The notes beneath the pieces are model-generated. The model did no database searches. It had not been told where the DNA came from and worked only from the letters and a program-made list of their open reading frames with translations. The position numbers were made by a program, and so were the translations under genes. This document shows positions 1,120 to 34,476 of a stretch of DNA of 41,009 nt, in pieces; the first letter of the stretch is position 1, and each line of letters starts with the position of its first letter. The stretch is taken from NCBI GenBank assembly GCA_026396205.1, contig JAPLXF010000066.1, forward strand, positions 1 through 41,009. The letters are read 5' to 3'. This stretch comes from Candidatus Moraniibacteriota bacterium (GTDB taxonomy: Bacteria; Patescibacteriota; Minisyncoccia; Moranbacterales; UBA2206).

Positions 1120-1542
1120 TTATTCTATGGTAATCCCCATGCTTCTGGCCGTTCCGGCAACAATTTTTTCCGCCGCTTCTACATCATTGGCATTCAAATC
1201 CGCCATTTTCTTCTCGGCAATTTCCCTAAGCTGGGCTTTGGTTATTTTTCCGACCTTATCCTTTAGGGGATTTCCCGCTCCTTTTTGAACTTTAGCCGCT
1301 TTTCGCAGTAAATCAGAGGCTGGCGGAGTCTTTAGGACAAAAGTAAAACTTCTATCTTCAAAAATAGTTATTTCCGCCGGAATAATATCACCCATCTTAT
1401 CTTTGGTCGCTTCGTTGAATTTGACGCAAAATTCCTGGATATTCAAACCGTGTTGTCCCAAAGCCGGACCGACCGGCGGCGCCGGATTAGCCTTGCCGGC
1501 TTCAATTTGTAATTTAACCATTGTTTTAATTTTCTTCGCCAT
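1120..1542 (-). CDS. rplK: 50S ribosomal protein L11 (uL11)
   Basis: 140-aa [35 protein letters not shown], canonical uL11 N-terminal domain. Confidence 0.95.
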
Positions 1543-1708
1543 AATTGTCTTCGAGCTTTAGCGAGAAGCTACAATTATGAGCGTCCCGTAAAAATTCGAT
1601 GATTTAACTTTATATTATTGCTATTTTAAGCCGAAGGCGAATCCGCAAGCAAATTATTCTATAACATAGAAGCTTGTTTGGAATTTTTACTGGGATGTCA
1701 TAGCCATC
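1543..1708 (-). repeat. Type-A structured leader element, copy 2 (fills nusG-rplK spacer)
   Basis: Divergent copy: closing stem GUAAAAAUU/AAUUUUUAC, box GCCGAAGGCG, terminal hairpin CAUAAUUGU/ACAAUUAUG containing the rplK AUG. Confidence 0.7.
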
Positions 1709-1710
1709 AA

Positions 1711-2256
1711 CTATATTTTGTTAATTTGGAGAAAGTCCAGTTCCACCGGCGTCTCTCTCCCAAATATAGAAATTAGTACTTTGACTTTGCCCTTGGATTC
1801 ATCCACGCTGTCAACTTTGCCATCAAAATCTTTGAAAGGTCCGTCCACAATTTTTACCGCATCGCCAAATTTAACGTCAATTTTATATTTTGGTTCGTCC
1901 ATGCCCATTTTCTTTTTCAGCATTTCAATCTCCGCAGGATCAACTGGCGTCGGCGTAATTCCTAAACCGATAAATCCGGTAACATTCGGCGTATTGCGCA
2001 CCACATACCAGGAAGCATCCGTCACAATCATTTCTACCAGCACATAGCCAGGATAAATCCTTTCTTCGATTACGGTTCTTTTTCCGGCTTTTATTTTAAT
2101 CTTTTTTTCCGTCGGCACCATCACATCAAAAATCAGATCTTGCATATCCATAGATTCAATTCTTTGCCGGAGGTTCCTGGCTACATTGTCTTCATAACCT
2201 GAATAGGTATGGATAACATACCAAGCCCGTCCATGATGTTGTGTTTGTTTCGCCAT
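1711..2256 (-). CDS. nusG: Transcription termination/antitermination factor NusG
   Basis: 181-aa ORF, WYVIHTYSGYEDNV N-terminal NGN domain and C-terminal KOW (GDAVKIVDGPFKDFDGKV); secE-nusG-rplK synteny. Confidence 0.93.
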   Translation of the reverse strand: MAKQTQHHGRAWYVIHTYSGYEDNVARNLRQRIESMDMQDLIFDVMVPTEKKIKIKAGKRTVIEERIYPGYVLVEMIVTDASWYVVRNTPNVTGFIGLGITPTPVDPAEIEMLKKKMGMDEPKYKIDVKFGDAVKIVDGPFKDFDGKVDSVDESKGKVKVLISIFGRETPVELDFLQINKI

Positions 2257-2339
2257 ATTCTAATTTTTATCCTAATTATATCCGAATTTTATCCGAATAT
2301 TCGTGCTTGATTCGGATTTAATTCGAATTATAATTCGTA
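2257..2339 (-). repeat. Type-B stop-to-start spacer, copy 1 (secE-nusG)
   Basis: + strand begins ATTCTAATTTTTATCCTAATTATATCCGAATT immediately after the nusG CAT; CGAATTA/TAATTCG word series through to the secE stop. Confidence 0.75.
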
Positions 2340-2525
2340 TCATTTAATAATAAATGTTTTCAAAATGTAGGAAAATAGATAGTCAAGTATCCCCAGAAAA
2401 ACTGCTACCGCAATGCTGATACCGATTACCGTGGCGGTGTAATTGATAATTTGTTTTTTGTTCGGCCAATTGACTTTCAAAAGTTCTTGCTTGGCTTCCT
2501 TCAAAAAATTTATAAGTTTATTCAT
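2340..2525 (-). CDS. secE: Preprotein translocase subunit SecE
   Basis: 61-aa ORF with single C-terminal TM helix and KVNWP motif; position upstream of nusG. Confidence 0.85.
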   Translation of the reverse strand: MNKLINFLKEAKQELLKVNWPNKKQIINYTATVIGISIAVAVFLGILDYLFSYILKTFIIK

Positions 2526-2575
2526 TGTATTTTTTGGGTTTTTTAAAAAGCCTTTCGGGGCTTTTTCTTGGTTTA

Positions 2576-2604
2576 ATTCTATAGTATACTGTATTTTCTG
2601 TCAA
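2576..2604 (-). promoter_or_regulatory. Candidate promoter for secE-nusG (TTGACA-17-TAGAAT)
   Basis: Minus strand TTGACA at 2599-2604, 17-nt spacer, TAGAAT at 2576-2581; back to back with the tRNA promoter. Confidence 0.45.
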
Positions 2605-2607
2605 ATG

Positions 2608-2636
2608 TGGACAAATTCAGCTTTATTGTATATAAT
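2608..2636 (+). promoter_or_regulatory. Candidate promoter for tRNA-Ala/tRNA-Ile (TGGACA-17-TATAAT)
   Basis: TGGACA at 2608-2613, 17-nt spacer, TATAAT at 2631-2636, 21 nt upstream of tRNA-Ala. Confidence 0.5.
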
Positions 2637-2657
2637 AAACTTCAGTTTAAGAATATC

Positions 2658-2730
2658 GGGCCGATAGCTCAGCTGGTAGAGCATCTGTTTTGCATACAGA
2701 AGGTCTGGGGTTCGAATCCCCATCGGTCCA
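2658..2730 (+). tRNA. tRNA-Ala (anticodon UGC)
   Basis: Cloverleaf folded by eye: acceptor GGGCCGA/TCGGTCC with G3:U70, D arm GCTC/GAGC, anticodon stem TCTGT/ACAGA with loop TTTGCAT, T arm TGGGG-TTCGAAT-CCCCA; CCA not encoded. Confidence 0.9.
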
Positions 2731-2798
2731 CCGCATAAAATAAATTTTATAAAATTTTCATTTTATGCGATACTTGAAACACAGGCAGGGAGCGTTCA

Positions 2799-2934
2799 TC
2801 CCGCACTAAAAATTCAAGAAATATTTGGGCGCGTAGCTCAGTTGGTTAGAGCGCGTCACTGATAATGACGAGGTCGGAGGTTCGAATCCTCCCGCGCCCA
2901 CAGAATAAAACACTACTTGAATTTTAGTGCGGGA
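2799..2934. repeat. 19-bp inverted repeat bracketing tRNA-Ile
   Basis: TCCCGCACTAAAAATTCAAG (2799-2818) is the reverse complement of CTTGAATTTTAGTGCGGGA (2916-2934) apart from one bulged T. Confidence 0.85.
2827..2900 (+). tRNA. tRNA-Ile (anticodon GAU)
   Basis: Acceptor GGGCGCG/CGCGCCC, anticodon stem CGTCA/TGACG with loop CTGATAA, T arm GGAGG-TTCGAAT-CCTCC. Confidence 0.9.
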
Positions 2935-2990
2935 CAAGCTGATAATGACGAGGCTTGCCCCGCACCGAACTCTGTTCTGGTGCTGGGGTC

Positions 2991-3026
2991 GGAGATTCCC
3001 TGCCTGCCGGCAGGCAGGGAATCTTC
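2991..3026. other. GC-rich 18-bp perfect-core palindrome/hairpin downstream of tRNA-Ile
   Basis: ATTCCCTGCCTGCCGGCAGGCAGGGAAT (2995-3022) is a perfect palindrome, extendable to 2991-3026; its left arm can alternatively pair with CAGGCAGGGA at 2783-2792. Confidence 0.8.
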
Positions 3027-3040
3027 CATTGCCCACTAAT

Positions 3041-3075
3041 AAAACAGCTTACATAAAAAAGCTGTTTTTATTTTA
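3041..3075. terminator. Bidirectional intrinsic terminator (tRNA transcript / murD)
   Basis: Stem AACAGCTT (3043-3050) / AAGCTGTT (3059-3066) flanked by A-run on one side and T-run on the other; sits between convergent tRNAs (+) and murD (-). Confidence 0.6.
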
Positions 3076-4462
3076 AATTATTCACCGCTTCTTTGAATTG
3101 GTTGCCCCGGTCAAATTCGTTCTGAAACATTCCAAAACTGGTCGCGCCGGGTGAAAGCAGCACCACATCTCCGCTTGAAGCTTCATTGCTGGCAATTTCT
3201 ACCGCCTTAGTCATAGATTCCACTACCCGGAAATCCTCATTTTCCCGGCCAGTTATTTTCCTAATCTTTTCAATTAATTTTTCCGTGGCTGAACCTTTGA
3301 GAAAAATGATGCCCTTGGCTTTCTGATTAATGGTTTCTGCCAGCCCTGTTATATCCAACTTTTTATCTGTTCCCCCGCCAATTAGAATCAGCGGTTCGGC
3401 AAAAGATCGGATTCCAAAAATAGCGCTTTCCGGAGTGGTCGCTGCCGTATCGTTGTAATATTTAACGCCGTTTATTTCTCTGATAAATTCCAGCCGGTGC
3501 TGGAGGCCTTTGAATTCTCTTAAAGCTTTGGCAATAATTTTTAGTTCGATTCCCATGGCGCAAGCGGCGCCGACGGCCGCCATCACATTTTCTAAATTAT
3601 GTCCGCCGCGAAGCTTAACATCGCTGGCCTCTATTATTTTTTTCTCATCCACTCCGTCGTTCCAGTAGGCAGCGTCGTTTACTAAATAGACGGCTTTGCT
3701 GTTTTCGATTTTCTGCCTGGAAAATCTGATAATTTTCGATTTTATTTCCGGTTCAAATTTATTTAAAACTTTGTCATCCCAATTAATAACGCAAAAATCT
3801 TCCGGCTTTTGGCTGGAAAAAATAAATTTTTTGTCCTTGATATAGCTTTCCATTCCGGAATAATAATTCAGGTGGTCCGGATAAATATTGGTCAGCACTG
3901 CGCCTTGCGGGCTTATTCCGTAGCGCCCCAAAGCTGAAAGCCGCCAGCTGGAAAGTTCGAATACCACCCAACTGTCTTTTTTTATTTCTTTTAATTTATC
4001 CATCACTGAAACCTGGCCGATGCCGGCTTTGACCGGATTTTTTCCGGCGGCCTTTAAAATTTCATAGATCAGCGTGGAGGTGGTTGTTTTCCCCTTAGTT
4101 CCGGTAATGCCGATAATCGGATTTTTGCAAAATTTGAAAAAAAGGCTGGCATCCACTTCTACTGGAATATTTTTTTTGAGCGCCAATTCAATATATTTGT
4201 TATTCCAAGCCACGCCGGGTGTTTTGACAACTAGATCGGTATGCGTAAAATCCTCGCTCCGGTGCTGGCCCAAAACATATTCAATGCCTCTTAAGTCTTT
4301 CAGCGCCAGCAGCGAAGGCGCCAGCTCTTCCTTGGATTTCATGTCCGTCACCACCAATCTGGCTCCCAAAGCATGAAAAAAACGAACGGTGCCGATACCG
4401 CCGCTATTGAGGCCAAGCCCCATAACCGTTACCTTCTTACCTTTGAAATCTTCCGGTTTCAT
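3068..4462 (-). CDS. murD: UDP-N-acetylmuramoylalanine--D-glutamate ligase
   Basis: 464-aa ORF, N-terminal Rossmann GLGLNSGG and Mur ligase P-loop GITGTKGKTTT. Confidence 0.85.
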   Translation of the reverse strand: MKPEDFKGKKVTVMGLGLNSGGIGTVRFFHALGARLVVTDMKSKEELAPSLLALKDLRGIEYVLGQHRSEDFTHTDLVVKTPGVAWNNKYIELALKKNIPVEVDASLFFKFCKNPIIGITGTKGKTTTSTLIYEILKAAGKNPVKAGIGQVSVMDKLKEIKKDSWVVFELSSWRLSALGRYGISPQGAVLTNIYPDHLNYYSGMESYIKDKKFIFSSQKPEDFCVINWDDKVLNKFEPEIKSKIIRFSRQKIENSKAVYLVNDAAYWNDGVDEKKIIEASDVKLRGGHNLENVMAAVGAACAMGIELKIIAKALREFKGLQHRLEFIREINGVKYYNDTAATTPESAIFGIRSFAEPLILIGGGTDKKLDITGLAETINQKAKGIIFLKGSATEKLIEKIRKITGRENEDFRVVESMTKAVEIASNEASSGDVVLLSPGATSFGMFQNEFDRGNQFKEAVNNLK

Positions 4463-6173: not shown

Positions 6174-7160
6174 TTATTTACTAATGAACTGCGACATCTC
6201 TACCAGTCTATTGGCGTATCCCCATTCATTGTCATACCAGCCGACAACTTTGGCCAGATTGCCATTGGCCATGGTTAAAGATAAATCGACAATCGCTGAA
6301 TGCGAATCGCCTTTAAAATCCATAGAAACCAATTGCTCATCCGTAACGGCTAAAATTCCCTGCATACTATTCTTAGAGGCTTCTATAAAGGCTTCGTTTA
6401 TTTCTTCGGCGCTGGCTTCTTTTTTAAGCGTGCAGATGAAATCCACGATGGAAACTACCGGCGTTGGAACACGCAGAGATATGCCGTCTAATTTTCCTTC
6501 CAAATGTTTCAAAACTTTACCGACCGTTTTAGCTGCACCGGTAGTGGTTGGAATTATATTTAACGCTGCTGCTCTGGCCCGCCTTAAATCTTTATGCGGC
6601 AGATCCAAAACTCTTTGGTCATTGGTATAGGAATGCGTGGTCGTCATAAAGCCTTTTTCCACGCCGAATTTGTCGTCCAGAACTTTTATCATCGGCGCCA
6701 GGCAGTTGGTGGTGCAGGAAGCGTTGGAAATAATCGCTTCGCCTTTGTATTCTTTTTCATTGACGCCCAGAAGATAAACCGGCATATCGTCCTTGGCGGG
6801 CGCTGAAATTACCACTTTTTTGGCGCCGGCAGCAATATGCGCCTGATTTTTTTCCGTATTCTCAAAAACGCCCGTACATTCCAAAACTACATCCACACCT
6901 AAATCTCCCCATGGTAATTTTGTTGGATCCGCTTCGCTCAAATATTTTATCTTTTTCCCGTCAATTGTTATTTCCGACGTAGCTTCGTCAATGGAAACTT
7001 CTTTGCCATATCGGCCATAAGAAGAATCATATTTTAATAAATGCGCCGCGGTTTTAAGGTCCGTTAAATCATTGATAGCGACGACTTCCAAACCTTTCTC
7101 CATGGCGATTTTCAGCGCCGGCCGTCCAATGCGGCCAAAACCATTGATAGCTAACTTCAT
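6174..7160 (-). CDS. gap: Glyceraldehyde-3-phosphate dehydrogenase, type I
   Basis: 328-aa ORF, NGFGRIGR NAD-binding motif and active-site SNASCTTNCLAP. Confidence 0.95.
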   Translation of the reverse strand: MKLAINGFGRIGRPALKIAMEKGLEVVAINDLTDLKTAAHLLKYDSSYGRYGKEVSIDEATSEITIDGKKIKYLSEADPTKLPWGDLGVDVVLECTGVFENTEKNQAHIAAGAKKVVISAPAKDDMPVYLLGVNEKEYKGEAIISNASCTTNCLAPMIKVLDDKFGVEKGFMTTTHSYTNDQRVLDLPHKDLRRARAAALNIIPTTTGAAKTVGKVLKHLEGKLDGISLRVPTPVVSIVDFICTLKKEASAEEINEAFIEASKNSMQGILAVTDEQLVSMDFKGDSHSAIVDLSLTMANGNLAKVVGWYDNEWGYANRLVEMSQFISK

Positions 7161-7173
7161 AAGTTTATGTTTT

Positions 7174-7193
7174 CATCGGAGCTCAACTCCGAT
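7174..7193. repeat. REP-like 20-mer CATCGGAGCTCAACTCCGAT (self-hairpin) downstream of the RAYT gene
   Basis: Identical to 7653-7672; internal stem ATCGGAG/CTCCGAT. Confidence 0.75.
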
Positions 7194-7206
7194 TTTTTAT
7201 TATTAT

Positions 7207-7848
7207 TTATTCCAAAAGTAATTTTTCCATTTCTTTCTTTTTCCTCATTTCTTCTGCATTTATTTTAGCATACTTTTTATATTCTTCTAAGTCCTTAAAT
7301 TGGCCTAAAATAATTTCTTTGTTGCACAATACTCTGTTTCTTTTGCCGATATAATCAGGAAAACTGCACCATTTATAATCCGATGCTTTAGCAATTTTAT
7401 GTATTTCACTGTTAAGATTCACATAAGCCGAAAGGTATAACAGATATTCATTGGAATTTATATGTATAGACTTATATCTGCCTTGAAATAATGCACCCGA
7501 TCGCTCATTTTTTTGATTAAAATAATTGGTATATCCCGTACTTAATTTGTGCATGAATTTTTCTATTCCATTGTCGGTGAGTTGTTGCAAAATAAAATGG
7601 TAGTGATTTGGATTAAGACAATAACAAACAACATTAACCAATTTTTCAGGCTCATCGGAGCTCAACTCCGATTCGGAGTTGAGCTCCGATGCTCTTAATC
7701 TTTCTTCTCTAGTTAAATTATTGTTAAATTCTTTTATGTCTTTAAGAAATCTGAAATAATAATTTCCGTCCAAAAATATCTCGCGCTTATCTACGCCGCG
7801 ATTATAAATATGGTAATATTCTCCGTTGGCAAGCTCAGTTTTACGCAC
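7207..7848 (-). CDS. REP-associated tyrosine transposase-like (IS200/Y1 HUH family)
   Basis: GEYYHIYNRG N-terminus, HUH motif NHYHFIL, catalytic-Tyr region LYLSAYVNLN; GTG start overlapping the upstream ORF by 8 nt. Confidence 0.75.
   Translation of the reverse strand: MRKTELANGEYYHIYNRGVDKREIFLDGNYYFRFLKDIKEFNNNLTREERLRASELNSESELSSDEPEKLVNVVCYCLNPNHYHFILQQLTDNGIEKFMHKLSTGYTNYFNQKNERSGALFQGRYKSIHINSNEYLLYLSAYVNLNSEIHKIAKASDYKWCSFPDYIGKRNRVLCNKEIILGQFKDLEEYKKYAKINAEEMRKKKEMEKLLLE
7653..7691. repeat. REP doublet (REPIN-like 39-nt palindrome) inside the RAYT coding sequence
   Basis: CATCGGAGCTCAACTCCGA-T-TCGGAGTTGAGCTCCGATG; two inverted copies of the 7174-7193 unit, 13 codons, in frame (encodes SELNSESELSSDE). 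Confidence 0.85.
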
Positions 7849-8098
7849 TTATTTTATTTATTCTCCAATTGTTTCCAGAAACCTTTTTAATCCTAAATTC
7901 AGCCTTTTCCAAAGCCGTATTTTTGGCAATATTTTTGAGTCCAAACTCCAAATTTTCCAGATTTATATCTTCCGTATGATCAGTATGAGTAATCATTCCA
8001 ATTTCAATATCTACGCTTTTAACTTTAATTATCCCTTTGTTAAGGGCAATTTTTTTTAACGTTTCAATTATTTCTTTGGCTAGTAAAAAATCGTGCAT
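7841..8098 (-). CDS. hypA: HypA-like hydrogenase nickel-insertion protein, N-terminal domain only (no Zn-finger)
   Basis: Starts MHDFLLAKEII (MHE-type Ni motif), then KVKSVDIEIG; 85 aa with no Cys, so CxxC...CxxC is missing; ATG at 8098 because upstream codons read through type-A copy 3. Confidence 0.5.
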   Translation of the reverse strand: MHDFLLAKEIIETLKKIALNKGIIKVKSVDIEIGMITHTDHTEDINLENLEFGLKNIAKNTALEKAEFRIKKVSGNNWRINKISA

Positions 8099-8268
8099 GC
8101 CAATTTTGTCTGCGAGCGTAGTGAGCAGGAACAAAATTGAGCATCCCGCACCAATTCGCAGTATAAACTTCTTGTTAAATTAAACTTAAGCCGCAGGCGA
8201 CAACGCACACAAAACTATAAACTATAACCAGCCTTTGTTGGAATTTGGTGCTGGGATACTATAATTAT
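8099..8268 (-). repeat. Type-A structured leader element, copy 3 (ends 2 nt before hypA AUG)
   Basis: Near-identical in its conserved blocks to copy 4; closing stem 8143-8157 / 8240-8257, box GCCGCAGGCG, terminal hairpin CAAUUUUGU/ACAAAAUUG. Confidence 0.8.
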
Positions 8269-8287
8269 AACCTAAATATCATTTACT

Positions 8288-9193
8288 TCAAAAAGGCGTT
8301 TTCTTCAAAATATCCGTCTTGATTTTGTTCGTATTCCCATGTTTTAATAGACCAAAAAAATAAGAATTTATTGTTTCCGGCGCAGGATTTTCTCTTATTC
8401 TTTTTATCATTCTTTTCTTTGTTTTTGTTCGCAAAACTCTATGATCAGAAAAGTTTACCCAACCGAGAAAATCTACTCCGGAATTAAGCGTTTTTATATA
8501 AACTTTATCCGGATGCAATTCCAACTTTAATTCGTCTTTTAAGAATTTACTAATTATTTCAATTTGTTTTTCCAGCCAAGTTCTATCTTTGGAAAAAATT
8601 ACGAAATCATCGGCATAACGGATATAATATTTGACTTTTAATTTATGCTTTACGAACTGGTCAAATTTATTCATATAGATATTCACGAAAAGCTGGGAGG
8701 TTAAGTTGCCTAAAGGCAAGCCAATACTGTTAATATCCTTCTCATTTCTAAGGAGAGGGTGGGGTAAGGTAAAACTTTCTATAACATTTTCCAAAAGCCA
8801 AACAATATTTTCATCTGAAATATACTCTTTCAAAATACTAACTAGAACTTTGTGATCTATATTAGCGAAAAATTTTCTAATGTCGCATTTAAGAATCCAG
8901 CAGGTTTTAGTATTGTTTTTGCTGACAATATGGGCAAATTGGCGAAATCTATTAATGGCTTTGTGCGTGCCTTTGTTGTTCCGGCAGGAATACGAATCGG
9001 CAATGAAAATTCTGTCAAAAAATGGGTAAAGTTTCCGGTAAATGGCGTGATGCAACAATCTGTCCCGGACTGTCGCTTTATGAATATCTCTGGGTTTCGG
9101 ATCATTGATTTTAAAGGCTTGATACCCGCCGTGTTTGTAGGTATGATTTAAAAGTTCGCTGTGAAGCAAAAATATGTTATCCATCAGACGCAT
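8288..9193 (-). CDS. DGR reverse transcriptase
   Basis: RT motifs PKPRDIHKA, ILKCDIRKFF, GLPLGNLTSQLFVNIY (DGR-type motif 4), YIRYADDFVIF, GVDFLGW; adjacent TR/VR pair. Confidence 0.9.
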   Translation of the reverse strand: MRLMDNIFLLHSELLNHTYKHGGYQAFKINDPKPRDIHKATVRDRLLHHAIYRKLYPFFDRIFIADSYSCRNNKGTHKAINRFRQFAHIVSKNNTKTCWILKCDIRKFFANIDHKVLVSILKEYISDENIVWLLENVIESFTLPHPLLRNEKDINSIGLPLGNLTSQLFVNIYMNKFDQFVKHKLKVKYYIRYADDFVIFSKDRTWLEKQIEIISKFLKDELKLELHPDKVYIKTLNSGVDFLGWVNFSDHRVLRTKTKKRMIKRIRENPAPETINSYFFGLLKHGNTNKIKTDILKKTPF

Positions 9194-9219
9194 AGAAAAT
9201 TCCTGAACATCTTTTTTGA

Positions 9220-9561
9220 GTAATTTTAAAAGAGAAAGAAGCTTATCAATTTTGGTTAGTTTTACATCGTGATTTTCCCAAAACCGAACGCTACGGATTA
9301 GGCAGAAGAATTGATACTCTTTTTCTGGAAGTTTTGGAATTGAGTTTTACCGCTTCATATCTGCCGCCTGAACCTAAAATAATTCTTCTTGGCAAAGCTA
9401 TATCGCGGCTAGATATTCTCAAATTCTTTGCGCAAATTGCTTGGGAAAACAAATTAATCCACACTGAAAGATACGCCAATCTTTCGCAAAGACTGGAAGA
9501 AATCGGCCGAATGCTTGGAGGCTGGAGAAAGGGACTACAAAAGAAAACTCTCACCCGATAA
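9220..9561 (+). CDS. avd: Avd-like four-helix-bundle protein (23S rRNA IVS protein family), no canonical start codon
   Basis: Open frame from 9220 reads VILKEKEAYQFWLVLHRDFPKTERYGLGRRIDTLFLEVLELSF...LSQRLEEIGRMLGGWRKGL, typical of the four-helix-bundle family that includes DGR Avd; first in-frame ATG/GTG/TTG is TTG at 9334; ATT at 9223. Confidence 0.65.
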   Translation, partial: VILKEKEAYQFWLVLHRDFPKTERYGLGRRIDTLFLEVLELSFTASYLPPEPKIILLGKAISRLDILKFFAQIAWENKLIHTERYANLSQRLEEIGRMLGGWRKGLQKKTLTR

Positions 9562-9575
9562 TGGATGAGAGAAAA

Positions 9576-9701
9576 AAGCAAGTTTCGGAACAACAATCCG
9601 ATGGCGATCCTCGGCACTCCAGACATTGTCGTTCTCGAACCTGTTGACATTGACCTTGAGCTTGTCATCGGAGTTGAAGTTCACGTTGGCAACGAAGAAA
9701 T
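9576..9701 (-). repeat. DGR template repeat (TR)
   Basis: 126 bp matching 10002-10127 at offset 426; at all 10 internal mismatches this copy carries A on the minus strand; intergenic. Confidence 0.9.
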
Positions 9702-9921
9702 GTGCGACAAGCCATCTGCGCCACCATCCATTGAATACTCTCTGGATTGAATCTTATGCGGAACCTAAAAGTTCTCCAGCCTATCGCACCAACTGGCTAT
9801 TTTTTATTTTGAAAAAACGCATCCACTCTTCCGCAAGACATATCCAGCGAAATTCTCAAATGCAGTTTTCAGCAACTTTGATTTGAAGCCGTAGCCGCAA
9901 ATTATTCCGAGCTGCTTTATT

Positions 9922-9949
9922 ATTATACAAAAAAATCCCCTGGATTCAA
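9922..9949 (-). promoter_or_regulatory. Candidate promoter for the TR transcript (TTGAAT-16-TATAAT)
   Basis: Minus strand TTGAAT (9944-9949), 16-nt spacer, TATAAT (9922-9927), overlapping the 3' arm of the post-VR hairpin. Confidence 0.35.
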
Positions 9950-9971
9950 AGTATCAAAGAATCCAAGGGAT
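9929..9971 (-). terminator. Hairpin plus U-run 28 nt downstream of VR (target-gene terminator and/or DGR homing hairpin)
   Basis: 13-bp stem ATCCCTTGGATTC / GAATCCAGGGGAT (one G-U), 11-nt loop, followed by T7 on the minus strand. Confidence 0.7.
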
Positions 9972-9999
9972 TAAGGTTTAAAGAACAAAGGGGAAAGGG

Positions 10000-10686
10000 T
10001 TAAGCCAGTTGCGGAACAACAAGCCGACGGCGAACCTCGGCACTCCAGACAATGTCGTTCTCGAACCTGTTGACATTGACCTCGAGCTTGTCACCGGAGT
10101 AGAAGTGCACGTAGGCAACGAAGAAATTATCATCTGCGTCCTTCGTTTCATCCTTTTTAAATAAAAAGAATGTCGCATAGCCATCAGTTCTGAGCCATTT
10201 GCTGTGTTTTTTTACAAACTTTTTGATCTGTGATTGCTTTAGGCAAAGTTTTTTTCGCTCTGTTGAAAACGAATTAAACATTTGCCGAAAGGTCGCATCC
10301 TCTGACATTTCAAAAACCTGAACGGGAGTTTTGCCTGTAGCTGATGCTTTTTTATCAAGGCCCCAATTTTTGAAATCAGAATCAATGTAAGCAAAAACAT
10401 CTTTTGCGTCTGCCAGCGTTTCTGTCCCGTCACATTCATCAATAATGATGGTTTCGCTGCCGGAAATGAGTTTGAGAAATTTGTTCTCAGTTTTTTTCAC
10501 TCCCTCGACAATGATGCGAGCAATTTTTTCCAGCGTTTTACTTCCGTCAGGAGTTGCTAAGCGATAGATATTTTCCATTGATCCGCCGAATTTTTTTACA
10601 AGCTCAACGAGATTGGAAATAAACGCCATAAAAACTCCCATACCCGATACGATTGCCTCTACATCTTTCTTGCTTCTCGTGCTCAT
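10000..10686 (-). CDS. DGR target (variable) protein, function unknown
   Basis: 228-aa ORF with VR at its extreme C-terminus; strong SD GAGGAG 7 nt upstream of the ATG. Confidence 0.85.
   Translation of the reverse strand: MSTRSKKDVEAIVSGMGVFMAFISNLVELVKKFGGSMENIYRLATPDGSKTLEKIARIIVEGVKKTENKFLKLISGSETIIIDECDGTETLADAKDVFAYIDSDFKNWGLDKKASATGKTPVQVFEMSEDATFRQMFNSFSTERKKLCLKQSQIKKFVKKHSKWLRTDGYATFFLFKKDETKDADDNFFVAYVHFYSGDKLEVNVNRFENDIVWSAEVRRRLVVPQLA
10002..10127 (-). repeat. DGR variable repeat (VR)
   Basis: Last 41 codons plus stop of ORF 10000-10686; differs from TR only at TR-adenine positions plus one T/G mismatch next to the 3' end. Confidence 0.9.
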
Positions 10687-10772
10687 TTTATCTCTCCTCT
10701 TATTTTGGCTTGTCCCTCGCTTCGACCCAATGCCGAAGTCCCAGACTTGCCGGTTTAAAAGTACAATATATT

Positions 10773-10801
10773 AGCATACACCCAAAAGTGTATTTTGTCA
10801 A
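10773..10801 (-). promoter_or_regulatory. Candidate promoter of DGR target gene (TTGACA-17-TATGCT)
   Basis: Minus strand TTGACA at 10796-10801, 17-nt spacer, TATGCT at 10773-10778. Confidence 0.5.
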
Positions 10802-10848
10802 ACGCAAAAGTCAGTTTTTGGCTTAAATAAAGGTTTATATAGAAAAAA

Positions 10849-12108
10849 TCAGTGCACTGCGCAGGAAATACATGGGTCATACGCCCGAATAAAGGCCCGT
10901 AATTTTTTTTCTTTGATTTTATCGTCCAAATTCATAATGCTGGGAATATAAGCTTTGATGTCATCTTCCAGATTGGCTAAAAATTGGGCAGTGGGCGTGA
11001 TGATGTTTACATTTTTTATATAGCCTTTGCCGTCAACTTCCACATGATAATATAAAGTGCCCCGCGGAGCTTCGACAGCCGCGACACCAATTCCTTCTTT
11101 GATTTCATATTTTTTGCTCAACGCTTGGTTTAAATCCGAGTGCAAAAGTTCTTTGGTGATTTTTACCGACTCTTCGATGCAATGAATGACTTCCACCATC
11201 TGGAAAAGAATATTGTGGAAAGGATTATAGTCCGGAAATTTATAATTCAGGCTTTCCAGATATTTGTGGGCCTCCATATTCAATTTGCCCCGGTTGATAT
11301 TCACCCGCGCAATGGCGCCGACCATATAGCTTTGGCCGTTATGTTCCAGAGTTTTTATCACTTGATTTTGTTTTTGGATTTCCTGGAAATTGGTTTCAAA
11401 TTTTTCCACCGGCAAGATTGTGCTTTTGGAAGAAACAATATCGCAATCATAGACGGCATAGGTTCCGCTTTTGGCCAGGCAGACATATTCCGTTTCCCGG
11501 GAAAATTCGGGAATCTTTATTTTCCGGAAAAATTCTCCCAGTTCCAAGGCGATTTTTAAAACTTCGTCGCTTTTTTCCACAAGATTTTTTAGTTCTTCCG
11601 GCTTCGGCACTTTTTTGAATCCACCGACTTCGTTGGTCAAAGGATGGACGACCCGCCCGCCGATTATTCTGACGATATCCATTCCAAATTCCCGGATCTT
11701 AATGGCTTTTCTGGTTTCTTCTGGATATTCTTTAACCAGCTGAATATCATTGTCCATATCCAAAAAATCGGCCAGTGACAGGAAAAACAAATGCAAGGCG
11801 TGGGAATGGATAATCTGCCCGAATTCCATGAGCGTCCGCAATTTTTCGGTTTCCGGAGTAATTTTGACGCCAAAAGCGTTTTCTACCGCTTTGACTGCCG
11901 TCAGATTATGCACCACCGGGCAAATGCCGCAAATCCGCTGCGCCACTACCGGCATATCGGTATAATATCTGCCAATCAAAACGCCTTCAATCAAGCGTAT
12001 GCCTTCCTGAATCTCCAACTTGGCCGACTTGACATCGCCTTGTAAAACACTGGCCATAAATCCGGCGTGTCCTTCCATTTTCGCGATATGATTGATACGA
12101 ATATTCAT
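10849..12108 (-). CDS. [NiFe]-hydrogenase large (alpha) subunit, group-3-like
   Basis: N-terminal RICGICPVVH and C-terminal DPCISCAVH Ni-Fe ligand motifs; ATG 12108 preferred to GTG 12132, which reads through spacer words. Confidence 0.88.
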   Translation of the reverse strand: MNIRINHIAKMEGHAGFMASVLQGDVKSAKLEIQEGIRLIEGVLIGRYYTDMPVVAQRICGICPVVHNLTAVKAVENAFGVKITPETEKLRTLMEFGQIIHSHALHLFFLSLADFLDMDNDIQLVKEYPEETRKAIKIREFGMDIVRIIGGRVVHPLTNEVGGFKKVPKPEELKNLVEKSDEVLKIALELGEFFRKIKIPEFSRETEYVCLAKSGTYAVYDCDIVSSKSTILPVEKFETNFQEIQKQNQVIKTLEHNGQSYMVGAIARVNINRGKLNMEAHKYLESLNYKFPDYNPFHNILFQMVEVIHCIEESVKITKELLHSDLNQALSKKYEIKEGIGVAAVEAPRGTLYYHVEVDGKGYIKNVNIITPTAQFLANLEDDIKAYIPSIMNLDDKIKEKKLRAFIRAYDPCISCAVH

Positions 12109-12135
12109 ACAAATTAAATCCGAATTATTCACGAA

Positions 12136-12513
12136 TTATTTTTTATTTAGAATCCTTTTTGGCTTTAAAGTTGTTTCAGAAAAATTCACTATTATTCCGA
12201 GTTCTCTATTTGAAGCTTTTAGGTATCTTTTCATCTGAACATAATCTTTTGTGGTAATTTCTTTTTTACATTTTATATCCAGAACTATTTTGTCATCTAT
12301 CAGAAAATCAAGTATATTTCCGGTTAGTTTTATTCCTTCAAACTCTATGGGTATCTCGATCTCTCTTTTATAATTTATTTTTTCTTTTTTTAATATTACT
12401 TCGAATGCATCGCAATATTGCTTATGATTACAAAATCTCCCTAATTTATTATGAATATCAAATAAAATTCCATTTATTTTATAAGAAAACTCTTTATATA
12501 AAATTTCTACCAT
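12136..12513 (-). CDS. GxxExxY protein (PD-(D/E)XK-like small nuclease family)
   Basis: 125-aa ORF with the family layout ...EIPIEFEGIKLTGNILDFLIDDKIVLDIKCKKEIT...YLKASNRELGIIVNF; inserted between hydrogenase subunit genes. Confidence 0.65.
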   Translation of the reverse strand: MVEILYKEFSYKINGILFDIHNKLGRFCNHKQYCDAFEVILKKEKINYKREIEIPIEFEGIKLTGNILDFLIDDKIVLDIKCKKEITTKDYVQMKRYLKASNRELGIIVNFSETTLKPKRILNKK

Positions 12514-12567
12514 AAAAATTCGTATTTAATTCAGATGTAATTCGGATTCAAATTCGTATATTTGGAT

Positions 12568-13359
12568 TTAATTCGGATATAATTTGGATTCCCATTCGGA
12601 TATGTCATCTCGGAGACCGTATATCTCCGAAACATTTTCAAGCTCCTCATCTGTCATCATATTTTTGAGCGCAGCGCGCATGGCTTTGACATTGCCTTTC
12701 GGTCGCAGTCCCCGGCAGCCTTGGCACATCATCCGCGAAGTCGGACAGACGGCATCACAGCCGCCCAAAATCATCGGCCCGAAACAGGGTTTTTTATCCA
12801 AAAGCAAACAGCGGTTTCCGCGCGCTTTGCATTCTACACAAACCGGCTGGTCAGGTATTACCGGTATTTTACCCTCAAGTAGTTCCGGCATATATTTTAA
12901 AAATTCTTCGGCATTGATAGGACAGCCGGGAAAAGTAAAATCCACTTTGACGAAATTATCCACTTCTTTGATTTCCGTATTTTTGATTCCCTGGACATAT
13001 TTATAGACATGCTTGATGGTGTTCATACCTTCCTGATAATTTTTGATTTCCGGAATGCCGCCCATGGCCGCGCAATTTCCCAAAACCGCTAAAATCTTAC
13101 TTCTTTCCCTCAGTTTTTTTAAAGTTTCAATATTTTCATCCGTCATCGGATTGCCCTCTACAATTCCAATGTCAATTTTTTCGCCTTTATCTTCTTCATC
13201 TTCCAGAAGCCGGAAATCTACCATTTCAATTTGCGAAACGAAATCCAAAAAACATTCGCCCAAGTCCAAAAGCGCGAACTGGCAGCCTTCGCAGGAAGTC
13301 AAGGAAACTATGGCTATCTTGGGCTTTTTCTTAAAAAAATCTTTAAAATGCTCCAGCAT
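12568..13359 (-). CDS. [NiFe]-hydrogenase small (delta) subunit, group-3-like
   Basis: KIAIVSLTSCEGCQ proximal cluster motif, GNCAAMGG, C-terminal Cys-rich FeS segment CVECKARGNRC...CFGP...GGCDAVCP...CQGC. Confidence 0.85.
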   Translation of the reverse strand: MLEHFKDFFKKKPKIAIVSLTSCEGCQFALLDLGECFLDFVSQIEMVDFRLLEDEEDKGEKIDIGIVEGNPMTDENIETLKKLRERSKILAVLGNCAAMGGIPEIKNYQEGMNTIKHVYKYVQGIKNTEIKEVDNFVKVDFTFPGCPINAEEFLKYMPELLEGKIPVIPDQPVCVECKARGNRCLLLDKKPCFGPMILGGCDAVCPTSRMMCQGCRGLRPKGNVKAMRAALKNMMTDEELENVSEIYGLRDDISEWESKLYPN

Positions 13360-14953: not shown

Positions 14954-15153
14954 TTTTGCTTGCTAAATAATTTTTTAATTTCTAAGGCCTGTTTTGAGGT
15001 AATTTTATCAATGATAAAATTATTCTGGGTTAAAACCCAATCTCCCTTTTTCACTTTTATTAAAGCGCCTACTGATTGCCTTCCCTTTTCTGAATTAACT
15101 GTAATGGAACCATTTTTAACCGAGAGTACTTTTTTAGGAATAGTCAGGCACAT
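14950..15153 (-). CDS. hypC: Hydrogenase assembly chaperone HypC/HupF
   Basis: Begins MCLTIPKKV (invariant N-terminal Met-Cys), GDWVL motif; ATG at 15153, because upstream codons of the track ORF read through type-A copy 4. Confidence 0.8.
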   Translation of the reverse strand: MCLTIPKKVLSVKNGSITVNSEKGRQSVGALIKVKKGDWVLTQNNFIIDKITSKQALEIKKLFSKQK

Positions 15154-15316
15154 GCCAATTTTGTCCGCGAAGTATGAGCGGGAACAAAATTGAGCATCCC
15201 GCACCAATTCGCAGTATAAAATTTTTATTAAATTAACCTTAAGCCGCAGGCGACAACGCACACAAAACCAAAAATTATATGAAAACTTTATTGGAATTTG
15301 GTGCTGGGATAGCTAC
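15154..15316 (-). repeat. Type-A structured leader element, copy 4 (fills fba-hypC spacer)
   Basis: Closing stem 15196-15210 / 15293-15310, box GCCGCAGGCG, terminal hairpin CAAUUUUGU/ACAAAAUUG ending 2 nt before the hypC AUG. Confidence 0.8.
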
Positions 15317-15320
15317 TTCT

Positions 15321-16184
15321 TTACGCTTTGCCGTCGCTTCCAAAAAACTTTATTTTTCTCTTGACTGTTTCTTTGACAGCTTCCCGGGCCGAACCCAAAA
15401 GTTTCCGGATATCAAAGCCAACATTGCCTTGATTTTTTACTGAATTTATAAGGTTATTGATGAAAGCCATGCGAATAGCTGTATCTACATTAAAGCAAGT
15501 CACGCCGCGATTAATAACTTCCTTAACTTTTCCATTTTCCCAGTCTGAAGCGCCATGGAGAATGAGCGGTATATTGCAAATTTTATTTATTTTTTCCAGC
15601 CTTTCCAAATCCGGGGTTTCGCGCTCTTTGAAAAAGTCGTGGGCATTGCCAATAGCTATGGCCAATGAATCCACTTTGGTTTCCTGTATAAAATTGCCAG
15701 CTTGTTCAGGGTCGGTCATATAATCTTCCCATTTTATCTGGCCGGCTTCAAATTCTCCCAAATAAGGGACACTGCCCAGTTCCGCTTGAACATTTATTTC
15801 TTTTCCGTGGCAAAATTCCACGATTTTTTTCGTCATACTAAGATTGTCGGTATATTTCTTGCGCGAACCGTCATACATAACTGACTTAAATCCGATTTCC
15901 ACCGCCCTTTCAATTATTTCAAAACTATGGCCGTGATCCAGATGAATGCCCACTGGAATTTCCGGCGCATAAAATTCCGCGTCATTTTTAACTAAATTAA
16001 AAATGCCCCGCCCGCCGGCATATTCCATAGTTTTTTCCGTGATTTGGACGATGACCGGCGAACGCATTTCTTTAGCGGCTTCAATGATAGCGCGGGTGGT
16101 TTCCAGATTGACAGTATTGAAAGCGCCGACGGCATAACCGCCTTCTTTGGCTTTGGCTAAAATTTCTTTGACACTAACAATCAT
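15321..16184 (-). CDS. fba: Fructose-bisphosphate aldolase, class II
   Basis: GGYAVGAFN N-terminus, HLDHG zinc site, 287 aa. Confidence 0.9.
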   Translation of the reverse strand: MIVSVKEILAKAKEGGYAVGAFNTVNLETTRAIIEAAKEMRSPVIVQITEKTMEYAGGRGIFNLVKNDAEFYAPEIPVGIHLDHGHSFEIIERAVEIGFKSVMYDGSRKKYTDNLSMTKKIVEFCHGKEINVQAELGSVPYLGEFEAGQIKWEDYMTDPEQAGNFIQETKVDSLAIAIGNAHDFFKERETPDLERLEKINKICNIPLILHGASDWENGKVKEVINRGVTCFNVDTAIRMAFINNLINSVKNQGNVGFDIRKLLGSAREAVKETVKRKIKFFGSDGKA

Positions 16185-34042: not shown

Positions 34043-34140
34043 TATGCGAATTTGAATCCGAATTATTCCCGAATTTCATCCAAATTAAATTAGCTAAATT
34101 CGGATAATAATTTGGATATAATTCGTATTCCAATTCGAAT

Positions 34141-34476
34141 CTACATTTTAATCTCCACATCCACTCCGGCCGGCAGGTCCAAATTGGTCAGATTATCAAT
34201 GGTCTTGGGTGTCGGATTCCAAATATCAATCAAGCGCTTGTGCATCCGCATTTCGTACTGGTCGCGCGCATCTTTATGGACAAATGTTGAACGATTGACA
34301 GTGAATTTGCGAATCTCCGTCGGCAAGGGAACCGGACCGGTAATACTGGCGCCGGATCGCTGCGCTGTTTCCACAATCTGCTTGGCCGACTGGTCAATGA
34401 TTTTGTGGTCATACGCCTTAATCTTAATCCGAATCCTCGATTTTACTTCCTCTTCTTGTTCTTGCTTCTTAACCAT
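34141..34476 (-). CDS. rpsJ: 30S ribosomal protein S10 (uS10)
   Basis: 111-aa [27 protein letters not shown]... Confidence 0.95.

Follow-up and report, generated by a model that had tools for sequence, protein, structure and literature searches.

In a 41,009-nt stretch of DNA from a Candidatus Moraniibacteriota bacterium (GCA_026396205.1, contig JAPLXF010000066.1, positions 1-41,009; referred to below as the window), a gene related to RAYT, the transposase whose genes are flanked by repetitive extragenic palindromic (REP) sequences, was found to contain a perfect palindrome of 39 nt within its coding sequence and to be followed by a further copy of the hairpin from which this palindrome is built. 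The gene, the downstream hairpin and the internal palindrome probably constitute a REPtron of the candidate phyla radiation (CPR) type, in which the gene for the enzyme hosts a dimer of its cognate hairpin in a permissive loop. We propose that the 39-nt palindrome is a head-to-head dimer of the cognate hairpin, and thus a minimal unit resembling a REPIN (a doublet of inverted REPs), inserted in a permissive, probably disordered surface loop that follows the N-terminal helices and precedes the HUH-bearing beta-strands. Comparison of sequences indicates that a palindrome at the same site is common among closely related genes and also recurs in more distant members of the family, and is no accident of the source genome.

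The hairpin and its palindrome in the RAYT-like gene

A search of the window with the 20-mer CATCGGAGCTCAACTCCGAT gave exact plus-strand matches at 7174-7193 and 7653-7672 and an inverted copy with one mismatch on the minus strand at 7672-7691, and matches of this kind arose by chance in none of 100 shuffles. The latter two copies form the perfect palindrome, which has a stem of 19 bp and one central base and folds with -37.7 kcal/mol (z = -7.7) as single-stranded RNA and with -23 kcal/mol (z = -8.9) as single-stranded DNA (ssDNA). The initial annotation of this DNA had described the 20-mer downstream of the gene and as an inverted pair inside it, and both placements were confirmed, as was the reading of the insert as 13 codons long and in frame, although the palindrome is offset from the codon boundaries. 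It encodes residues 53-66 of the protein, ASELNSESELSSDE, between the YHIYNRG region and the HUH motif NHYHFIL, and leaves the reading frame intact. Two of the three frames of the palindrome are free of stop codons in both orientations and give either the peptide SELNSESELSSD or GAQLRxGVELR.

The solo hairpin lies 13 nt past the stop codon of the RAYT-like gene, and not 14 nt as first stated, and 14 nt before the start of the adjoining GAPDH gene, in a spacer of 46 nt. It has 22 nt exactly in common with the intragenic copy, which bears out the proposal that the insert is a doublet of the hairpin flanking the gene. No further copies were found in the 41-kb window with up to four mismatches, so that the hairpin occurs three times in total, always at this gene, and the window lends no support to the view that the 20-mer is a genome-wide REP family. 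A scan of the whole window with Rfam gave two tRNAs only and no match at the palindrome. The possibility that the downstream hairpin terminates the RAYT-like transcript was considered and rejected, since the T-run follows the stem on the plus strand only, which is the strand opposite to the gene.

The hairpin 17-mer TCGGAGCTCAACTCCGA is identical to a helix of 16S rRNA in many phyla, CPR included (16S context gtgaaatcTCGGAGCTCAACTCCGAaactgc; loci L007-L123 are examples, among them L043, L048 and L051), an identity that is probably a coincidence. When GTDB genomes were scanned with this 17-mer, ~90% of the matches listed (117 stretches) were 16S rRNA genes, and a k-mer census of the hairpin is thus misleading unless rRNA is masked.

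Predicted fold and family of the RAYT-like protein

The protein matched Pfam family PF01797 (Y1_Tnp) with 30.1 bits against a cut-off of 23, the alignment covering residues 69-144 only. In an alignment of 40 homologues, H82, H84, Y142, N144 and N146 were invariant, and by analogy with the Y1_Tnp family Y142 is the putative catalytic tyrosine. A sequence-only search of the PDB with the family profile gave no match, and the fold search alone succeeded: the AlphaFold (AF2) model (pLDDT 90.6) was closest to 4ER8_A, the structure of E. coli RAYT in complex with a REP hairpin (E = 1.2e-7, TM 0.65), followed by the IS608, ISDra2 and IS200 transposases (Foldseek matches 4ER8, 2VJV, 2XMA and 2F4F, with E from 1e-7 to 4e-4). 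Confidence dropped in the neighbourhood of residues 51-70 and fell to a pLDDT of less than 50 at 61-63; this segment is the palindrome-encoded loop, which is thus likely to be disordered. On this model the protein has the RAYT/IS200 fold and its catalytic motifs, with the insert in a surface loop. The assignment of the gene as RAYT-like in the initial annotation is therefore well founded, given the Y1_Tnp score above cut-off, the best fold match to 4ER8, and the invariant HUH histidines and Tyr142. Alignment of the homologues, which had been suggested as a check that the segment is an insertion, showed the loop to be rich in indels and absent from the shortest of the 40.

A protein search retrieved 4787 homologues at E <= 1e-5, and a full-library profile search gave 1389 clusters at 50% identity with E <= 1e-30. 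Those that carry names are a Patescibacteria, Parcubacteria, Moranbacteria or Paceibacteria 'transposase', or a JGI 'REP element-mobilizing transposase RayT'. No relatives were found among viral contigs.

Palindromes at the same site in homologues

DNA was available for 16 homologous loci, and 12 of these had, at residues ~53-76, a palindrome or hairpin of perfect symmetry with a stem of between 7 and 27 bp. The peptides SELNSESELSS, TELNSEASELSS, KELSSEASELSS and others like them stood at the same position in many of the 40 aligned homologues, and 27 of the 120 best matches had a peptide of the doublet type. Palindromic DNA was also present in genes whose proteins are devoid of the ELNS peptide (L174, L175, L176, L178 and L179). 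Thus L174 has a 46-nt palindrome, GGACTTAGGCTCTAAGAGCCCAATTGGGCTCTTAGAGCCTAAGTCC, which occupies the same codons as the window palindrome with a different sequence; the internal palindromes of L175 and L176 are of 56 and 42 nt; and L178 and L179 carry the internal hairpins CTTGGGAGTTCAACTCCCAAG and TCGGAGTTCGACTCCGA. The internal stems are strictly Watson-Crick on both strands, with no G-T wobble.

Homologues available as proteins were analysed with a script that asks whether any choice of codons can make the DNA for a given peptide a perfect palindrome, a test that reports compatibility and not the actual DNA. Of 111 close homologues, 76 had a variable loop that could be encoded by a palindrome with a stem of 16 bp or more; shuffled loops allowed this in 5 cases, and a control region of equal length in none. 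The predicted stems agreed with the DNA wherever the DNA is known. Among representatives at 50% identity, 13 of 51 were compatible, whereas shuffling left 3 of 51 and the control region gave 0 of 47 (51 of 150 representatives could be tested; the rest did not match the anchoring motifs). Across lineages the loop peptides are chemically unrelated, as in KLSFGYPKLSF, GLSP..RDLVP, LGSKSPIGLLEPKS and NLGVQLPR. Conservation at the loop is one of DNA symmetry and not of protein sequence. Decayed versions of the loop were also seen, as SESDSESESDSD in P0014 and in the loop of P0008.

A second dimer was found in P0073 (L005), as a clean insertion of 15 residues between the equivalents of K185 and D186, where the model has a loop. 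Close to the equivalent position L145 carries a single hairpin, and this loop is a second permissive site. The shortest homologue, P0061 (L177, 1000-1900), has no internal palindrome and is bracketed by four hairpin copies of another family, AGGGACTAAGTCCCT, which include two 35-nt palindromes after the stop codon; the flanking arrangement thus persists without an internal palindrome.

The initial annotation had regarded the doublet as an odd, one-off insertion, possibly a scar or the first step of inactivation. This reading was not supported, as the same site is palindromic in most close homologues and the palindrome sequence varies between lineages and tracks the flanking hairpins. An incipient pseudogene was rejected too, the same-site palindrome being present in most close homologues. 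The homologous loops without palindromic DNA that had been named as contrary evidence were not found; loops, where they exist, are palindromic.

Internal palindromes match the hairpins flanking the same gene

The internal motif varies from genome to genome (GGAGCTnAnCTCC, GGCTCTAAGAGCC, GGGACTTAGTCCC, GGGAGTTCAACTCCC, GGAGTTCGACTCC). When loop DNA was compared with the 150-nt flanks of its own gene, exact matches of at least 20 nt, and of up to 40 nt, were found in 8 of 15 loci, whereas in the control, in which the rest of the gene was compared with the flanks, the longest exact match was at most 12 nt. In L001 an identical stretch of 33 nt that includes the hairpin occurs inside the gene and just past its stop, with another copy 13 nt upstream of the start. 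Hairpin copies stand 19 nt upstream of the start and directly past the stop in L003, and 6 nt upstream of the start and 2 nt past the stop in L178, while dimers of 41 nt and 42 nt lie 31 nt past the stop in L179 and 8 nt past the stop in L163, respectively. Over the 15 loci, and allowing up to one mismatch, 26 hairpin cores were inside the genes and 28 within 200 nt of them, compared with 3 in the other 194 kb. The hairpins are thus concentrated on the RAYT-like gene.

Three different palindrome families occur among the closest relatives of the window protein (P0003, P0004 and P0002), and at the orthologous site the palindrome of the window is replaced by another in L174. On a tree of the conserved parts with 111 leaves, the palindrome family changed 45 times by Fitch parsimony, against ~71 for random labels, the tree and the family labels both being rough. 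Palindrome families therefore appear to be inherited, and yet to be often replaced. Taken together, the sequences show a loop of fixed position in which the palindrome changes from lineage to lineage while still matching the flanking hairpins of that gene.

Dispersed doublets in related CPR genomes

An unbiased scan of metagenomes, built so as to avoid rRNA, yielded 56 doublets on 49 stretches, totalling 383 kb. About 33 of the 56 lay within long open reading frames (ORFs), usually in the frame that gives (S/T)ELNS(E/D)xSELSS and at times in the one that gives GAQLRxGxELR; the doublet DNA also occurred between genes and in the other reading frame. Pfam assignments for 20 of the host ORFs included the leucyl- and methionyl-tRNA synthetases (LeuRS, at two different sites, and MetRS), MurG, a Mur ligase, RecG, an RsmI-like methylase and RNase HII, as well as ParB (three times), asparagine synthase, a Wzy-type ligase, a methyltransferase and several DUF-domain proteins. 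In-frame cases of this kind were also present in metagenome-assembled genomes of GTDB, with RsmI, RecG and LeuRS among the matches listed. In a pairwise alignment the doublet of the L131 LeuRS falls in a segment absent from the L160 LeuRS. The doublet of the L160 LeuRS (8296-11541), SELNSDSELSSD, aligns with another quasi-symmetric peptide, KSQINSKFKIQNSKF, in the L131 LeuRS (1260-4160), and other palindrome families may thus occupy the same permissive loops of housekeeping proteins. In RNase HII orthologues that are 75% identical, a dimer is present at the same site and its loop has changed in both arms (CTCAG/CTGAG against CTCAA/TTGAG), indicating that symmetry was maintained through the change.

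RAYT-like genes held 7 of the 56 doublets and 3 more were within 100 nt of such genes, a large excess for a gene of 0.65 kb. In metagenome Ga0180732 one exact core of 36 nt was present in 12 of 22 doublets, and on L163 the same core occurs both within the RAYT-like gene and directly behind it. At Ga0180732 loci that include L141, L152, L169 and L172, the doublet forms the centre of a longer element of ~70 nt, with conserved non-palindromic ends, approximately TTGAATATGA ... GCGAAGCATA, outside a perfect palindrome of 50 nt.

Gene neighbourhood and inheritance

The features of the window are collected in Table 1. The gene order NiFe-hydrogenase, hypA, RAYT-like gene, GAPDH, amidohydrolase, murD and ribosomal protein L1 is common to the window and L174, whose RAYT-like protein (P0003) is ~67% identical to that of the window, and the synteny spans more than 10 genes. 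L003 and L005 likewise have NUDIX, radical-SAM and RAYT-like genes in common, and each contig has one RAYT-like copy. On the evidence of these two cases of synteny, the gene appears to behave as a domesticated, stably resident RAYT, unlike a hopping insertion sequence (IS). The 8-nt overlap of the hypA stop with the RAYT-like start is present in both genomes (7841-7848 in the window, 10001-10008 in L174), and it suggests co-transcription and translational coupling with the hydrogenase-maturation gene.

Table 1. Coordinates of features in the 41,009-nt window
Feature	Position	Strand	Remarks
RAYT-like Y1/HUH ssDNA transposase gene	7207-7848	-	ORF, 213 aa, GTG start
HUH motif codons His82-Tyr83-His84	7597-7605	-	H82 and H84 invariant in 40 homologues
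Codon of Tyr142 (AYVNxN motif), putative catalytic tyrosine	7423-7425	-	invariant in 40 homologues
Intragenic 39-nt palindrome	7653-7691		two inverted copies of hairpin TCGGAG-CTCAA-CTCCGA, 7655-7671 and 7673-7689
Solo hairpin copy	7175-7193		7-bp stem, 5-nt loop
hypA-like gene	7841-8098	-	Pfam HypA; stop overlaps RAYT-like start by 8 nt
GAPDH gene	6174-7160	-	ORF translation; directly downstream of RAYT-like gene; L174 counterpart Gp_dh_N/C
11-nt-periodic arrays	2254-2341, 12094-12605, 25473-25554, 26459-26540, 26944-27031, 28768-28849, 29670-29751, 30391-30482, 34043-34144		

Proposed mechanism

The observations would be accounted for by a domesticated Y1/HUH enzyme related to RAYTs, passed on vertically and tied to a short hairpin that it most likely recognises. 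The enzyme would bind hairpins extruded on single-stranded DNA, and would cut and rejoin them as the E. coli TnpA-REP and IS608 TnpA do, whose biochemistry is the basis for this step (PMC3333891, PMC3479197, PMC8266576). New copies would land preferentially near the gene, and would accumulate there because bacterial proteins are made beside the genes that encode them. Of the copies landing within the coding sequence, those that survive would be the ones in tolerant loops and in a frame free of stops.

Several points weigh against this explanation. The hairpin is not dispersed in the 41-kb window, which makes activity in the source genome conjectural, and the flanking hairpin of the window stands on one side of the gene only. 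No GTAG guide of the classical REPs was found at the foot of the hairpin; the copies in the window are preceded by ...TTTTCA-TCGGAG and ...GGCTCA-TCGGAG, and those of the homologues are bordered by runs of A and T. With such an A-run and T-run, flanking hairpins could conceivably be simple terminators. The curated RAYT model of NCBIfam, NF047646 (equivalog), scored 28 bits, far below its cut-off of 80, and we class the system as one that would work like a REPtron, without assigning the protein to the curated RAYT family. Four of the 16 loci (L173, L177, L180 and L001, the last with a single hairpin) are without a perfect internal palindrome, the palindrome-compatibility signal is weaker among the distant representatives, and neither a target-site duplication nor a conserved target motif was found around the 56 dispersed doublets. 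Binding and cleavage of the hairpin by the protein are predicted from its fold and family, and the cis preference is a putative one. The internal copy may plausibly have a further role, as a brake on expression through a very stable hairpin in mRNA or ssDNA, or as a privileged donor or 'master' copy.

It is possible, but rather doubtful, that the internal palindrome is a working cis-element on which the enzyme acts, and no mere passenger, being either a master copy that seeds and homogenises the flanking and dispersed copies or a site of self-cleavage or self-binding that limits expression. If so, each gene would hold a built-in record of the DNA specificity of its enzyme, co-evolving with the protein.

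Alternative explanations

The alternative that survives best, as a tentative possibility, is a selected regulatory hairpin whose stem throttles translation, invites cleavage of the RNase III type or blocks RNA polymerase, so that the transposase is kept low; likeness to the flanking hairpins would then reflect origin only, and the idea is compatible with the REPtron explanation. The fold of the RNA (-37.7 kcal/mol, z = -7.7) and the perfect stems of 16-27 bp kept in many lineages are in its favour, self-limitation is common among transposases, and REP hairpins have been proposed to down-regulate the expression of RAYT or IS200 (PMC3733652). However, the same dimers are present in the essential genes for LeuRS, MetRS, MurG and RecG, where throttling is unlikely to be useful, and the stem is thus tolerated by translation. 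Strict Watson-Crick symmetry of the stems, together with the tolerance of the same dimers in essential genes, favours a process at the level of DNA over selection on RNA only, and regulation offers no account of why the sequence tracks the flanking hairpins.

It is unlikely that the gene is an autonomous element of the IS200/IS605 type, with the flanking hairpins as its left and right subterminal ends and the internal palindrome as a nested miniature derivative made of a left and a right end. Hairpins 0-40 nt from both start and stop in the homologous loci do have the IS200/IS605 layout, the fold also matches the IS608 and ISDra2 TnpA, and an inverted-hairpin dimer resembles a junction of left and right ends. 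In contrast, the conserved gene order of the window and L174 (more than 10 genes, ~67% protein identity), the synteny of L003 and L005, the single copy per contig and the hypA overlap of 8 nt in both genomes all speak for residence, the hairpin of the window is one-sided, and the best fold match is a domesticated RAYT.

A passive relic, that is, a single ancient in-frame insertion inherited vertically as a neutral sequence and unlinked to the enzyme or the flanks, is largely refuted and very improbable. The phylogenetic signal (45 Fitch steps against ~71 expected at random) and the decayed versions, such as SESDSESESDSD in P0014 and the P0008 loop, would suit it, but perfect symmetry over 33-56 nt persists in proteins diverged by 35-45%, the site is taken by several unrelated palindromes, among the nearest relatives and in the syntenic orthologue too, and the exact matches to the flanks, of up to 40 nt, are specific to the genome.

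Still less probable is selection at the level of the protein, in which an acidic, serine-rich loop, SELNSESELSSD, would be kept as a DNA mimic or flexible linker and the palindromy of the DNA would be incidental. Peptides of the SELNSESELSSD type are almost unchanged in several homologues; elsewhere, however, the loop peptides are unrelated and have palindrome compatibility alone in common, the loop is likely disordered, and the same DNA is present between genes and in another frame, and on these grounds the idea is already contradicted. Palindromic chimeras are possible in metagenome assemblies, but an artefact of assembly or amplification is the least credible reading of all, since independent ENA, JGI, NCBI and Logan assemblies have the same architecture, without exception in frame and at one codon position, and since identical proteins were found on several contigs.

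Comparison with known systems

Our literature search found no report of REP/RAYT or REPIN systems from CPR, nor any description of a RAYT gene with a REP dimer in its own coding sequence. In-frame coding palindromes of bacteria include the Rickettsia palindromic elements (RPEs), reportedly described by Ogata in 2000. Published precedents exist for REPtrons (RAYT genes with flanking REPs), for REP dimers that move as a unit (REPINs), and for in-frame REPs or RPEs in housekeeping genes (PMC3333891, PMC3116915, PMC3733652).

The REPtron of the E. coli and Pseudomonas type is a RAYT (TnpA-REP) gene flanked by hairpins of REPs or bacterial interspersed mosaic elements (BIMEs) (Nunvar 2010; Ton-Hoang 2012, PMC3333891; Messing 2012, PDB 4ER8). 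The system described here resembles it in a Y1/HUH fold closest to 4ER8, a single syntenic gene, and hairpins of one family at the gene ends whose sequence is specific to the lineage. It differs in that a hairpin dimer is also present inside the coding sequence at a fixed loop, the GTAG tag is missing, few hairpins stand at the gene where the REPtron has hundreds dispersed, the score against the curated RAYT model is poor, and the host belongs to the CPR/Patescibacteria. Like REPINs (Bertels and Rainey 2011, PMC3116915), the unit consists of two inverted REP-like hairpins, and in Ga0180732 there is a population with a dominant 'master' sequence identical to the RAYT-linked copies. Unlike REPINs, its spacer is of 1-6 nt and the whole unit is a perfect palindrome of 33-56 nt, many copies lie in coding sequence, and no population was seen in the 41-kb window.

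Intragenic REPs and RPEs (Di Nocera 2013, PMC3733652) are likewise palindromes, often dimers, that lie in frame and without destructive effect in housekeeping genes (tRNA synthetases, repair, replication), and orthologues use the same site. The insert studied here has their hallmarks: frame and catalytic residues are intact, the loop is of low model confidence, and the segment is absent from the shortest homologues. In contrast to them, the host gene here is that of the presumed mobilising enzyme, the insertion is recurrent across relatives, the units are shorter than RPE-1, and CPR are not among the reported hosts in the literature found. With IS200/IS605 elements and their miniature derivatives the gene shares its bordering subterminal hairpins, the IS608/ISDra2 fold match and, as predicted from the fold, HUH/Tyr chemistry on ssDNA; it differs from them as a syntenic gene without sign of mobility, without tnpB and with an internal hairpin dimer.

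Other repeats in the window

A conserved element of ~170 nt is present in five copies (70-260, 8075-8290, 15125-15325, 27185-27380 and 28208-28400), which on alignment have long invariant blocks such as TTGGTGCGGGATGCTCA and CGCCTGCGGCTTA. Each copy lies just 3' of a minus-strand gene, and one abuts the sole reverse-transcriptase gene of the window (8288-9193, minus strand, PF00078); the syntenic locus L174 has neither this gene nor the element. The element had no match in the Rfam scan of the whole window, and it may be an RNA associated with the reverse transcriptase or a repeat derived from a retroelement. A motif with a period of 11 nt, ATCCGAATT / AATTCGGAT, is repeated in at least nine arrays between genes, which make up imperfect palindromes of 80-90 nt (Table 1), and it is these arrays, not the GGAGCTCAACTCC hairpin, that are the abundant repeat of the window.

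Implications

For annotation, the loop accounts for much of the length variation and for the low-complexity 'SELNSESELSS' peptides in RAYT-like proteins. If each RAYT-like gene carries its cognate hairpin, pairs of enzyme and target would be readable straight from gene sequences, and the 1389 clusters would then supply ready-made training data on the code by which HUH enzymes recognise DNA. Such enzymes are in use as sequence-specific tags for coupling ssDNA to protein. The CPR/Patescibacteria, with their very small genomes, tolerate mobile coding palindromes in the essential genes for LeuRS, MetRS, MurG and RecG; the coding palindromes known so far came for the most part from Rickettsia and a small number of other bacteria (PMC3733652). 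A fixed site combined with fast turnover of a sequence that stays matched to the flanks would offer a direct test of REP-RAYT co-evolution and of cis preference.

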